DNA of 64,000 nucleotides from a phage. This document shows, in pieces, positions 3,484 to 31,128 of the stretch. Both the position numbers and the translations under genes were made by a program. The notes beneath the pieces were generated by a model, which saw only the letters and a list, made by a program, of their open reading frames with translations, had not been told where the DNA came from and ran no database searches. The stretch is from the NCBI GenBank assembly GCA_037431425.1, contig GCA_037431425.1_4129.1; one strand, given 5' to 3'. Position 1 is the first letter of the stretch; each line of letters begins with the position of its first letter.

Positions 3484-3809
3484 ATGGAAAAAGTATATAT
3501 AATAAAATACCAGAAGGGTATGTACCTGTACCAAAAGAACAAAAAACAAAACAAATATCTCTTCTTAGACAAGGATCTATTACTGAAATAACTTTGGATG
3601 GTAAAACATTTCAAGTTCATGATCCCGCTCGTGTTGAAAAAATAATTTCTTTAGTAGAACGACATGAAGAACGTTTTTTTAGTTTAAGTCAAGAGTTAGC
3701 AAAGACGAAACAAAATTATAAAATATTAGAGAATCAAATAACCACCTTGACTAATACCGTTAAACAGTTACAGGAGCAAGTAAAAAATGCAGGATTTGAC
3801 CGATTCTAA
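3480..3809 (+). CDS. Hypothetical coiled-coil protein
   Basis: 109-aa ORF, start overlaps upstream stop (ATGA). Confidence 0.5.
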   Translation: MNGKSIYNKIPEGYVPVPKEQKTKQISLLRQGSITEITLDGKTFQVHDPARVEKIISLVERHEERFFSLSQELAKTKQNYKILENQITTLTNTVKQLQEQVKNAGFDRF

Positions 3810-15859: not shown

Positions 15860-18178
15860 ATGATTAACGTAACCAAGCGTAATGGAATGAAAGAACCGTT
15901 ATCATTGGATAAGATCCATCAGATTTTATTTTTCGCTGCTGAAGGTCTAAGTGGTATTTCAGTTTCTGAAATTGAACTTCGTGCACAACTTCAGTTTTAT
16001 GAAGGTATTGAAACCAGTACTATTCATGATATTCTGATTAAAGCAGCCGCAGAACTTATTTCAGAAGATACACCAAATTACCAATATGTTGCTGGTAGAT
16101 TATTAAACTATAGTATTCGTAAGCAAGTATATGGGCAGTATGACCCGATTAAATATGCTGCTCATCTTCAAGAAATGGTTGATATCAAAATATATGATCC
16201 TGAAATTCTTGAAAAATATACTCTTCAAGAAATAGAAGAGCTTGGGCGTTATATCAAACATAAACGTGACGATAAATTTACTTATGTTGCAATGCGACAA
16301 TGGGAAGGAAAATACCTTTACAAAAACCGCGTTACTAAGAAAATTTATGAAACTCCACAAATGGCATATATGACTATTGCCGCAATCATTTTTATGGAGT
16401 ATGATCGTTCCGTTCGTATGTCATATGTTAAAAAGTTTTATGATGCAGTAAGTAACTTTGACATTAGTCTTCCTACACCTATTATGGCTGGTCTACGTAC
16501 AAACACACGTCAGTTTAGCTCTTGTGTAGTTCTAAATGTTGGTGACAGCTTGGATAGTATTGGTTCATCTAACCACGCCATTCTACGTTATATTTCACGT
16601 AAAGCTGGTCTTGGTATTAATATGGGCCGCATTCGTGCCCTAGACTCCGAGATTCGTTCAGGTGATGCAGTACATACTGGATTGATTCCGTTCATTGCAG
16701 CTACTGCTAAAACTGTTAAAAGCTGTTCACAAGGTGGTGTTCGTGGTGGAGCAGCAACTGTTCACTTCCCATTGTGGCATTTGGAATTTGATAACTTGGT
16801 AGTTCTTAAAAACAACAAAGGAACTGAGTTTAACCGTGTACGTCAACTGGACTATTGTTTCCAAGTAAACAAAACTTTGTATCAACGTTTGGTTGATGGA
16901 AAGAATATCACGTTCTTTAGTCCTAATGAAGTTCCTGGGTTATATGATGCATTTTGCTCTGATCAAAAAGAATTTGAAAAGCTATATAAAAAATACGAAT
17001 CTGACCAAAGCATCCGTAAAAAATCCGTACCTGCTGTTGAAGTATTCAGTACTCTAATGACTGAGCGTGCAGAAACTGGTCGCATTTATATTCAAAATAT
17101 TGACCATGCAAACACACACTCAACCTTTATTGAATCAATTGCACCAATTGAACAATCCAACTTGTGCCAAGAAATTGCACTACCATCTGTACCATTTGAT
17201 GATATTAATACTGGTGAAGGTTTGATTAGTCTATGTACTTTGAGTGCAATCAACTGGGGTAACTTTGATCGCCCAGAAGATATGGAAACTGCATGTGATC
17301 TTTCTGTACGTGCACTTGATTCTCTATTGGACTATCAAGACTATCCAGTGGTTCATGCGGAACGTGCAACAAAAATGTACCGCCCGTTGGGTGTTGGTAT
17401 CATTAACTTTGCATACTTCCTAGCCAAACGTGGGTTACGTTATAATGAGGAAGCATTAGAAACAGTTAACGAGTGGGCTGAAGCATGGTCTTATTATCTA
17501 ATTAAATCTTCTGTACAGCTTGCCAAAGAAAAAGGTAAGTGTGAAGGTTTTGACACATTAAAATATGCTAAAGGTATCCTTCCAATTGATACTTATAAAT
17601 CTGATATGGATGAATTAGTAACTAAAGAGCTAAAACAAGATTGGAAATCTTTGCGTGAAGATATCAAACAATATGGTATTCGTAATGCTACAACTATGGC
17701 TCTAATGCCAGCAGAAACAAGTGCACAAATCAGTAACAGTACTAACGGTATTGAAAAACCTCGTTCTCTTGTAACAAAGAAACTATCAAAAGATGGTATT
17801 CTGAAACAAGTAGTTCCTGAAATCAATAAGTTGAAAAACAAATATGATTTACTATGGGAACAAAAAGATAACATTGGCTATCTACAAATTTGTGGTGTTC
17901 TACAAAAATACATTGATCAAAGTATCAGCGTTAATACCAGTTACAATCCAGTACATTTCCCTGATGGAAAGTTACCAATGTCAACTCTCCTAACTGAGCT
18001 TATGTATGCATATAAAGTAGGGCTTAAGAACCTGTACTATCATAATACCAATGACGGTTCGGATGAAGTAGATGTTGAAAAAGTACTCAAAGAAGCATCT
18101 AAACCAGAATCAGGGCAGTTTGTGTTACCTACATTACCTGACTTGGATGAAGGTGATTGTGATAGTTGTAAAATCTAA
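15860..18178 (+). CDS. nrdA: Ribonucleotide reductase class Ia large subunit
   Basis: 772 aa; N-terminal ATP-cone-like segment; C-terminal CDSCKI tail typical of class Ia NrdA. Confidence 0.9.
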   Translation: MINVTKRNGMKEPLSLDKIHQILFFAAEGLSGISVSEIELRAQLQFYEGIETSTIHDILIKAAAELISEDTPNYQYVAGRLLNYSIRKQVYGQYDPIKYAAHLQEMVDIKIYDPEILEKYTLQEIEELGRYIKHKRDDKFTYVAMRQWEGKYLYKNRVTKKIYETPQMAYMTIAAIIFMEYDRSVRMSYVKKFYDAVSNFDISLPTPIMAGLRTNTRQFSSCVVLNVGDSLDSIGSSNHAILRYISRKAGLGINMGRIRALDSEIRSGDAVHTGLIPFIAATAKTVKSCSQGGVRGGAATVHFPLWHLEFDNLVVLKNNKGTEFNRVRQLDYCFQVNKTLYQRLVDGKNITFFSPNEVPGLYDAFCSDQKEFEKLYKKYESDQSIRKKSVPAVEVFSTLMTERAETGRIYIQNIDHANTHSTFIESIAPIEQSNLCQEIALPSVPFDDINTGEGLISLCTLSAINWGNFDRPEDMETACDLSVRALDSLLDYQDYPVVHAERATKMYRPLGVGIINFAYFLAKRGLRYNEEALETVNEWAEAWSYYLIKSSVQLAKEKGKCEGFDTLKYAKGILPIDTYKSDMDELVTKELKQDWKSLREDIKQYGIRNATTMALMPAETSAQISNSTNGIEKPRSLVTKKLSKDGILKQVVPEINKLKNKYDLLWEQKDNIGYLQICGVLQKYIDQSISVNTSYNPVHFPDGKLPMSTLLTELMYAYKVGLKNLYYHNTNDGSDEVDVEKVLKEASKPESGQFVLPTLPDLDEGDCDSCKI

Positions 18179-18232: not shown

Positions 18233-20159
18233 ATGTCAGTTTTTAAAATTAATGAGAAATCTCACCTAGAAAAAAATATGTTTTTTGATGAAAGTGTTGA
18301 CATTCAACGATTTGAAAGTGTGAAATATTCAGCACTAGAGAAACTAACTGAACAACAGAAAAGTTTCTTCTGGACCCCTGGTGAAGTTGATGTATCCAAG
18401 GATAAAATTGATTTTGCCAACCTTAATGATTCAGAGAAGCACATTTTTACCTCTAACTTGAAACGTCAAATTCTTCTTGATTCTGTACAAGGTCGTGGTC
18501 CAAACCTAATGCTACTACCATATGCATCACTACCTGAATTAGAGAACTTTATTGAGACATGGGCATTCTTTGAAGGTGCTATTCATAGTAAATCATATAC
18601 TCATATTATTCGTAACATTTACCCTAATCCATCTGAAGTGTTTGATACTATGTTGGACATTCCAGAAATCACAGATTGTGCGGCTGATGTGTCTAAGTAT
18701 TACGATGAACTGGATGAGCTAGGTACATGGTATAAAGTACTGGGTGAAGGAACTCACAATGTCAATGGTAAAACTATTGTTGTTGATATGTACGAACTTA
18801 AAAAGAAAATGTGGTTGTGTCTGAATAGTATTAACATCCTTGAGGGTGTGCGTTTTTACGCTAGTTTTGCCTGTTCGTGGGCCTACGCCGAAAACAAGCT
18901 TATGGAAGGTAATGCCAAAATTATTCGTCTAATTTGCCGTTAACTCCATGGCGGCTTTGTACAGTAATGTACATTGAAAAACCTTATATATCGGTGAACA
19001 TCTTAACATGTAATGATGAAGACAATACCGAGATTTAGATAAATAACCCCCATAAATGAGATGAAAATATACATTTGGGGATAGTTATGTGTGATAATAT
19101 TTTTTACGTCTATGTTTGGTATAACCCAATTGACCAGATGCCATTTTATGTTGGTAAAGGTAAGGGGAATCGAGCGTATGATGTACCTGAACATTCTAGA
19201 AATACATATTTTATTCTAAAGTATAATAAAATATTAGAACTTGGAATGGAGCCATATGTTATAATTGAAAAAATTCACTTAGTTAAGACAACGCACTATC
19301 ATATGAATTAGAACTGATTTGAAGTATGGAAAGAACTATATGAAAAATATAAAGATTCCATTCCTAATATCAAAAATTCAGGTTTGAACAAGTATAAGTT
19401 GTCATTTGAAGATAAATTGGATATCATTGATGCTATTCATAATCGTGGTGAAACACAACTAAAGGAAATTGCACTACGATATGGATTGAAGGAGACTATG
19501 ATAGTGTCTATAAATCTTAAACGACAATGGAAAACTATATGGGAATATTATCTATCTAAATCCTAACGACTATCGAAACCACGTAGAAATGCGGAAGGGA
19601 GTAGAGTACTCTCAAGTGAGAGGAAACGTAAGGAATCCAGAAACTGGATTATGATATAGTCTGAACTACTATAGAAATATAGTGCAGTACTTCTAGCTGC
19701 CGAAGTACGGGGGAAGCTTAACGAACTTCCTTGAACATAATGGATGAAAATTTACACTTAGCAGCAACACAAATGATTCTCCGACTACTCAAGAAAGAAG
19801 ATCTAGACTTTGCAAAAATCGCAGAAGAGTGCTATGATGAAGTACTGGAAATGTTTATGTCTGCTATTCGCCAAGAAGAAGCTTGGGCAGATTTCCTCTT
19901 TAAAGATGGTTCTATTATTGGATTGAACTCTGAAATTCTTAAACAGTATGTTCGCTGGATTGGATCTAAGCGTATGACGGCACTTGGTATCAAATGTCCA
20001 TATACTGTATCCAAGAGTAACCCACTACCGTGGACTGAACACTGGGTAAGTGGTAGTTCTGTACAGGTAGCACCACAAGAAACTGAAATCAGTTCTTATA
20101 TCATTGGTGGTATTGTGAATGATATTCAAGAAGATACATTCACACCATTCAAACTATAA
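18233..20159 (+). CDS. nrdB: Ribonucleotide reductase small subunit, interrupted by a group I intron (exons 18233-18940 and 19743-20159)
   Basis: Exon 1 ends ...NAKIIRLICR then TAA; the ORF at 19731 continues DENLHLAATQ...EISSYIIG...FTPFKL, a typical NrdB C-terminus; joined product about 375 aa. Confidence 0.85.
18941..19742 (+). mobile_element. Group I self-splicing intron in nrdB
   Basis: Exon 1 ends in U (18940); gcggc at 18951-18955 can pair with exon gccgu as P1; GACUA (19568-19572) and gauauaguc (19653-19661) resemble P7 strands; intron ends in G (19742); carries a GIY-YIG ORF. Confidence 0.75.
19087..19311 (+). CDS. GIY-YIG homing endonuclease catalytic domain, intron-encoded (possibly truncated)
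   Basis: IFYVYVWYNPIDQMPFYVGKGKGNRAYD matches GIY...YIG...R; ORF stops after about 75 aa; ORF 19384-19566 in another frame may be its displaced C-terminal part. Confidence 0.6.
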   Translation: MCDNIFYVYVWYNPIDQMPFYVGKGKGNRAYDVPEHSRNTYFILKYNKILELGMEPYVIIEKIHLVKTTHYHMN

Positions 20160-28089: not shown

Positions 28090-28102
28090 ATTATAAAGGG
28101 GT

Positions 28103-31128
<3,026 letters not shown>

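Follow-up and report, generated by a model that had tools for sequence, protein, structure and literature searches.

The stretch of phage DNA analysed here (the window; 64,000 nucleotides (nt) of contig GCA_037431425.1_4129.1, assembly GCA_037431425.1) carries the ribonucleotide reductase (RNR) genes nrdA and nrdB, of which the second, encoding the class Ia small subunit, is interrupted by an 802-nt element with the structure of a group I intron. The adjoining nrdA is intact and ends at 18178. The following features make up the nrdB locus:

18233–18940, plus strand: nrdB exon 1, 236 codons ending in ...IIRLICR, with U as the last base; defined by the list of open reading frames (ORFs), Pfam and collinearity with Escherichia phage ph0011.
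18941–19742, plus strand: predicted group IA2 intron, 802 nt, beginning with an in-frame UAA and ending with a terminal G at 19742.
19087–19566, plus strand: remnant of a GIY-YIG endonuclease gene, lacking 1 nt near 19273 and about 253–254 nt near 19320–19326, and with in-frame stops at 19309 and 19315.
19743–20159, plus strand: nrdB exon 2, 138 codons and a stop codon, starting with DENLHL; defined by Pfam and collinearity with ph0011.

Over nrdA-nrdB the window is 99.7% identical to ph0011, its closest genome, and 90–94% identical to PBECO4, 121Q, UE-S1 and others; the window is part of an Asteriusvirus-type jumbo coliphage genome.

The boundaries of the insert are exact. The nrdB frame runs from the ATG at 18233 to R236 (CGT, 18938–18940), meets TAA at 18941–18943 directly after ...NAKIIRLICR, and picks up again at 19743 with DENLHLAATQ, the part that carries the iron ligands E and H, to reach its stop at 20159. 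The stop and the resumption had both been described in an earlier, sequence-only reading of this DNA, and both are seen in the ORF list. Exon 1 covers positions 6–190 of the Pfam profile Ribonuc_red_sm and exon 2 covers positions 191–281; the two reading frames are therefore contiguous halves of one domain, which abut exactly, with no loss or repeat. In ph0011, nrdB is an uninterrupted gene of 1125 nt, and the window matches its bases 1–708 and 709–1125 (417 nt). The surplus in the window is exactly the 802 nt from 18941 to 19742, a base-by-base comparison from both ends leaving no sliding ambiguity, so that the interval proposed in the earlier reading agrees to the base with the uninterrupted allele. 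The insertion point lies between codons R236 and D237, inside the iron-ligand motif RDExxH, and the spliced product of the two exons would be identical in amino-acid sequence to ph0011 NrdB.

The insert recurs elsewhere. The homologues collected were those of Yersinia phage fHe-Yen9-04, of the IMG/VR contig L143, and of the contigs encoding relatives of the intron protein (L163, L164, L167, L169, L170, L171/L172 and L173). In every one of them exon 1 ends at the equivalent of R236 and exon 2 starts at DE, so that the same insert, with its structure conserved, occupies the same codon boundary in at least nine other phage or metagenomic nrdB genes, a recurrence far beyond chance. The non-coding sequence on either side of the endonuclease frame, about 320 nt, keeps a group I fold and shows compensatory changes in its pairs. 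The paired regions of this fold in the window are as follows:

18936–18955, plus strand: P1, formed by the exon bases GCCGU (18936–18940) and the guide GCGGC (18951–18955), with a U.G pair at the splice site; invariant in the 10 homologues, 98% of alignment cells paired.
18958–18973, plus strand: P2, a hairpin UGUACA-GUAA-UGUACA with a GNRA loop; compensatory changes in five of six pairs.
18982–19031, plus strand: 5' strand of P3 (18982–18987), P4 (18991–18995 with 19027–19031) and P5/P5a (19001–19009 with 19016–19022).
19032–19040, plus strand: 5' strand of P6, GAUUUAGAU, whose partner at 19554–19562 closes the loop that holds the ORF.
19554–19562, plus strand: 3' strand of P6, AUCUAAAUC, overlapping the last codons of the endonuclease frame.
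19568–19661, plus strand: 3' half of the core, with the 5' strand of P7 (19568–19572), P7.1 (19582–19593), P7.2 (19609–19622), the 3' strand of P3 (19628–19633), P8 (19634–19650) and the 3' strand of P7 (19657–19661).
19669–19730, plus strand: P9 (19669–19682, GAAA loop), P9.1 (19687–19708) and P9.2 (19712–19730).

The fold was assessed on an alignment of 10 distinct homologous introns from which the ORF had been removed, using a hand-drawn model of the order P1-P2-P3-P4-P5-P6-P6a-P7-P7.1-P7.2-P8-P9-P9.1-P9.2. With this model 95.2% of the cells are standard pairs, as against 34–47% when the 3' partners are slid by 1–3 columns; 29 pairs are changed on both sides, and none of 500 shuffles reached any of the five measures used. 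Pairing amounts to 98.6–100% in P3, P4, P5, P7 and P8 and to 86.5% in P6, which in the window is a perfect 9-bp helix and among the homologues shows compensatory changes in six of its nine pairs. Such changes are present in P2, P3, P5a, P6, P7.1, P7.2, P8, P9 and P9.2: one pair of P3 alternates between U-A and C-G, one pair of P5a occurs as four different standard pair types, and both sides have changed in three of four pairs in P7.1, two of five in P7.2, two of five in P9 and four of five in P9.2. P3 and P7 cross each other and form a pseudoknot. RNAalifold, which is unable to draw pseudoknots, independently recovered P1, P2, P3, P4, P5, P7.1, P7.2, P8 and P9.2.

At the splice sites, U18940 stands opposite G18951 while GCCG pairs with CGGC, and all 10 homologues share an intron that starts with UAA and ends with G, behind a 5' exon ending in U. 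The hallmarks on which the sequence-only reading had based a group I intron, namely the exon-final U (18940), GCGGC (18951–18955), GACUA (19568–19572), UAGUC (19657–19661) and the terminal G (19742), lie where it had placed them, and its interpretation is now backed by the 802-nt-shorter allele, by covarying paired regions from P1 to P9.2, by a covariance-model match and by sibling introns that bear an endonuclease gene. We assign the intron, from its predicted structure, to subgroup IA2, because it has P7.1/P7.2 and P9.1/P9.2 and carries its ORF in the P6 loop.

The covariance-model search that the earlier reading had proposed as a check gave the following result. At gathering thresholds Rfam returned no match anywhere in the 64-kb window, and a permissive scan of 18800–19900 gave one clear match, to RF00028 (34.5 bits, local E value 7.5e-7), which aligns the R element AACGACUA, P8, the S element GAUAUAGUCU and P9 of the window intron. 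As a control, the experimentally established nrdB intron of phage T4 scored 35.7 bits in the same kind of scan, likewise below the threshold, and for the T4 td intron the scan listed no match. Since the T4 nrdB intron scores alike and td goes unreported, the threshold is uninformative for phage introns that bear an ORF, and the match was retained because a true intron, that of T4 nrdB, scores the same. In its 3' core the intron also shares 70–93% identity with group I introns of phages, whether classical or annotated; among these are the intron in gene 31 (DNA polymerase) of SPO1 and, in phages of Pseudomonas and Staphylococcus, features labelled "Intron_gpI".

Some of the evidence weighs against the interpretation as a splicing intron or lends it less than first appears. 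The score of 34.5 bits stands against an RF00028 gathering threshold of 50; it mirrors the way in which the model handles ORF-carrying introns and is no evidence against the window intron. The 10 aligned sequences are related to one another, so that the shuffle control overstates significance, a weakness of which the slid-partner control is free. P1, P4 and P7 are invariant and neither support nor contradict the model, P4 and P7 being the catalytic centre of group I introns. P10, read by eye, is weak, with 3 bp between CAU (18947–18949) and AUG (19744–19746). Finally, we infer both splicing, from the structure together with the integrity of the exons, and the history of homing.

The P6 loop (19041–19553) holds a second reading frame, a degenerate endonuclease ORF that the sequence-only reading did not mention. 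It opens with the ATG at 19087, reads MCDNIFYVYVWYNPIDQMPFYVGKGKGNRAYD..., and is interrupted by TAG (19309) and TGA (19315), beyond which the same frame extends to 19566. The 348-kb metagenomic scaffold L163, whose NrdB exon 1 protein is identical to that of the window, carries at the same place an intron of 1056 nt that is 99% identical to the window's and has an intact frame of 244 amino acids. Measured against L163, the window lacks 255 nt in total: single bases near 19273 and 19320, and a block of about 253 nt between imperfect direct repeats, CTGATT(A)TGAAGTA. These losses bring the tail of the endonuclease back into frame and leave the stretch between them scrambled. Only two differences set the ribozyme part apart from that of L163: position 18946, in the P1 loop, and an additional C at 19047, which lies in a peripheral hairpin.

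The intact protein belongs to a family with 14 close relatives, all of about 244 amino acids, in which Y7, Y9, F20-Y21-V22-G23, R29, E74 and N92 are invariant; these are the residues that characterise GIY-YIG nucleases, namely the GIY and YIG motifs and the Arg, Glu and Asn. Pfam alone left the endonuclease unclassified and a family profile was needed: this profile matched chains described as "GIY-YIG domain-containing protein" in the PDB (E value 5.7e-15), and members of the family match LEM-3-like GIY-YIG, NUMOD1 and NUMOD3 in Pfam. The frame in the window shifts after residue 62, before E74, and the segment with N92 is deleted; the window copy is therefore a dead pseudogene.

Between P6 and the start codon of the endonuclease (19041–19089) lies a conserved ATAAATA followed by a hairpin, the 3' strand of which includes a likely ribosome-binding site, GGGGA (19077–19081). 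This arrangement is reminiscent of the translational control of I-TevI in T4; the hairpin is only 73% paired across the homologues. A late promoter of the T4 type at the ATAAATA was considered as well, but, with 5 matches in the window where 12.9 would be expected, the motif TATAAATA shows no enrichment, so that no promoter is claimed and T4-style control of endonuclease expression cannot be assumed.

The distribution of the intron is patchy. None of 57 phage records that match the nrdA-nrdB region of the window has it, and among deposited phages only fHe-Yen9-04, an Eneladusvirus, carries it. In that genome (L001, 2285–4452; NC_042116.1, 223358–225525) the nrdB exons were deposited as separate proteins, g298 and g300, the GIY-YIG gene as the hypothetical g299, and the intron was left unannotated; the window intron is likewise unannotated in public records. 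Alleles with the intron (window, L163) and without it (ph0011) coexist at a flank identity of about 99% or more. This is the pattern expected of a mobile intron, and the three genomes form a natural series of states: an empty site in ph0011, a live endonuclease in L163, and in the window a 99%-identical intron from which the endonuclease has freshly been deleted. The junction pattern TGCCGTTAA-N-GCGGC was also tried as a search motif on viral contigs and proved too unspecific (more than 120 chance-like matches) to be used.

Taken together, the element in the window is very likely a group I intron that is spliced normally to restore NrdB and that arrived by homing with a GIY-YIG endonuclease since lost. 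Its boundaries, its fold, the conservation of that fold and the decay of the endonuclease are shown by the sequences. P1 would form in the pre-mRNA between the guide GCGGC and the five final bases of the exon, GCCGU, and the conserved core from P3 to P9 would fold. An external guanosine would then attack after U18940, and the freed exon end would attack after the terminal G19742, joining the exons as ...UGCCGU and GAUGAA... (ATTTGCCGT to GATGAAAAT) and restoring an NrdB of 374 codons. At an earlier time the endonuclease encoded in the P6 loop may have cut intron-less nrdB alleles, into which repair would have copied the intron. In the window this gene is dead: it has a frameshift and two stops, and about 85 codons, among them those for the catalytic Glu and Asn, are gone. 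The intron would consequently now be a passive passenger, obliged to keep splicing and able to spread further only by ordinary recombination or with the help of an endonuclease from a co-infecting relative.

Traces of such an event were also sought in the exons. Seven of the eight differences between the nrdB genes of the window and ph0011 fall between −4 and +90 of the junction; five of the seven agree with UE-S1 and do not occur in L163, which has the intron. A run of five synonymous differences from both ph0011 and L163, all as in UE-S1, occupies 52 nt of exon 2 (19781–19832). Background divergence stands at 1.3% for this pair of genomes, and certain 500-nt bins in other regions hold differences at the same density. 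The clustered differences probably represent a local patch of recombination, which is compatible with past double-strand-break repair and is no proof of homing. C at −4 and A at +21 looked linked to the intron when compared with ph0011 and UE-S1, but were dropped as co-conversion markers, since a wider sample includes alleles that lack the intron but have C or A, and others that have the intron but G at +21.

Other explanations of the locus have to be weighed against normal splicing. An endonuclease cassette might have split nrdB into two genes whose products, made independently, join to form an active protein; this has a precedent in phage RNR genes, the Aeh1 nrdA split by mobE (PMC3045599; PMC3653736). 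The halves in fHe-Yen9-04 are indeed annotated as separate genes with predicted ribosome-binding sites, and in the window an in-frame ATG (19740–19742) stands directly before exon 2. However, this start codon is not conserved, being ACG in four and TTG in three of the 10 homologues; the conserved group I fold, with its compensatory changes, is not needed by a simple cassette; the break between R and DE lies within the metal-binding helix; and the flanking RNA structure is fully kept in the window, where the endonuclease is dead. We regard separately translated halves as extremely improbable. The decay of the endonuclease, which signals relaxed selection on part of the element, and the extra C in the C-run at 19047 in the peripheral hairpin, as compared with L163, could instead point to a non-splicing relic of a group I intron and hence to nrdB being a pseudogene in this phage. 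Against this stand the integrity of every core helix, a ribozyme part with no differences from L163 other than those at 18946 and 19047, both exons being open and encoding a protein identical to ph0011 NrdB, and the intact nrdA; a dead intron is thus very unlikely.

A further alternative derives the window intron from T4 itself, by transfer of the nrdB intron with I-TevIII into a jumbo phage. The junctions in T4 were located by testing every 598-nt deletion for an open frame, an exon-final U and an intron-final G, which placed the intron at gcgt/AAAATGCG...ATACG/gtacc (slashes mark the splice sites), after the first base of the Cys codon of YVSFAC. This codon corresponds to C214 in the nrdB of the window, so that the T4 site lies 22 codons (65 nt) upstream. 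The two introns share the host gene, the structural subgroup (IA2) and, according to the T4 record, group IA structure; both contain an endonuclease gene, which in T4 has also been crippled by a deletion while the ribozyme was kept, I-TevIII being defective in T4 and intact in RB3 (PMC2988022). However, I-TevIII is annotated as an HNH enzyme, whereas the ORF of the window intron is of the GIY-YIG type, and sequence likeness is limited to core motifs of 22–35 nt, with no extended similarity. The contig L170 (563–3828; Logan SRR25011088_3538) moreover carries both introns side by side. Its nrdB is split three ways, by a T4-like intron with an HNH_3 ORF at the Cys codon of SFAC, a mini-exon of 65 nt (21 whole codons and part of a 22nd) encoding SWAFAENKQMEGNAKIIRFICR, and then an intron of the window type, with two separate matches to RF00028; the same twin arrangement stands at the cut end of contig L169 (1–1302). 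In such phages two introns must fold and splice without interfering. The difference in site refutes a transfer from T4, to which we leave practically no probability. The sequence-only reading had raised the question whether the insertion site is that of the T-even nrdB intron; it is not, and the host is no T-even phage but one of the Asteriusvirus type.

Other mobile elements were noticed in the same genomes. In L164 (1–1582) an NrdA of 1098 amino acids contains an intein with a LAGLIDADG domain, according to precomputed Pfam matches, which adds mobile elements of a third type to this operon. A free-standing ORF of 254–258 amino acids (phrog_3532, no known function) lies between nrdA and nrdB in fHe-Yen9-04 (L001, 1502–2275; g297), UE-S1 (L003, 2865–3638; UE-S1_018), L167 (879–1643) and L171 (859–1635), in the position that mobE has in T4; neither the window nor ph0011, L163 or L164 has it, and where it occurs does not follow where the intron occurs. 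Elsewhere in the window, a 928-nt insertion relative to ph0011 (28095–29022) separates genes for a ClpS-domain and a KTSC-domain protein. The ORF of 262 amino acids found there (28245–29033, plus strand), with CxxC repeats, matches the PHROG families of HNH endonucleases (phrog_559, E value 5.5e-55) and homing endonucleases (phrog_9084) and probably encodes a homing endonuclease of the free-standing kind.

Phage RNR genes with group IA2 introns that encode homing endonucleases have been textbook knowledge since the 1980s, and the window intron, a known type of phage element at a site other than the classic one of T4 nrdB, leaves what is known of group I introns and homing unchanged. Its practical value is in annotation, as is evident from fHe-Yen9-04, in which the halves of nrdB and the endonuclease were deposited as three unrelated genes. 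Among the T4 introns, that of td with I-TevI is likewise IA2 and encodes a GIY-YIG endonuclease, and its ORF is placed in the P6 loop; it occupies a different host gene and has no specific sequence relationship to the window intron. The intron with yosQ in bnrdF of Bacillus phage SPbeta is also a group I intron in the gene for an RNR small subunit, in the same region by the RDE iron-ligand codons. It was rejected as a same-site relative, its site being 7 nt upstream (AT/T ATT AGA GAC), its endonuclease HNH, and the R and S core motifs all that is shared.

A parallel in position is found in bacteria. Nord and Sjoberg described, in nrdF of the Bacillus cereus group, an intron IVS6 located after nt 579, with a P10 pairing to AUGA at the start of exon 2 (PMC2248736). 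In the numbering of a B. cereus-type NrdF (PDB 4bmo), which reads ...I191 I192 R193 D194 E195 S196 I197 H198, nt 579 is the boundary between R193 and D194, and the IVS6 site is therefore the same R/DE point as that of the window intron: LIIR/DESIH in the one and LICR/DENLH (CGT/GATGAA) in the other are homologous insertion points. The window adds a second, independent intron site in nrdB, beside the metal-ligand codons, which corresponds to the nrdF IVS6 site across RNR classes. IVS6 is a group IA intron with P7.1, P7.2, P9.1 and P9.2, whose GIY-YIG gene starts in the P6a loop; many of its copies have deleted endonuclease genes, and its splicing has been shown in vivo (PMC2248736). The window intron resembles it in its group IA structure, in all four of these paired regions and in its GIY-YIG gene. 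IVS6 resides in class Ib nrdF on bacterial chromosomes, whereas the window intron resides in class Ia nrdB of an enterobacterial jumbo phage, and I-BthII, as described, has a GIY-X8-YIG spacing in place of the YVY-X11-YVG of the window's family.

A scan of bacterial genomes for the R-element motif revealed introns without an ORF exactly at R/DE in nrdF of Ectobacillus panaciterrae (L240; SGEIINLIIR/DESIHGVFVG, with the junction ATCCGT/.../GATGAG) and in an R2 gene of Domibacillus enclensis (L235, 10008–10307; MINYINR/DEQLH). These introns measure 300–308 nt and their cores are 52–56% identical to that of the window, with similar 3' halves and dissimilar 5' halves; a similar likeness in the 3' core occurs in phage introns at unrelated sites. 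In L240 the search motif itself lies further downstream (3545–3562), which suggests a second intron in or after nrdF. An R2 gene in a Thiovulum metagenome-assembled genome (L244), interrupted within a few codons of RDE, was left out, as no junction with a U and a terminal G could be placed in it. The R/DE site is shared with these bacterial introns, while common descent of the introns is not established. The R/DE boundary might be a cross-class homing hot spot, where a single lineage of introns, armed time and again with different endonucleases, passed between the class Ib gene nrdF in Bacillales and the class Ia gene nrdB in enterobacterial jumbo phages. We consider such a history rather doubtful; movement across the classes would be possible because the target CGU/GAUGA is conserved in both.

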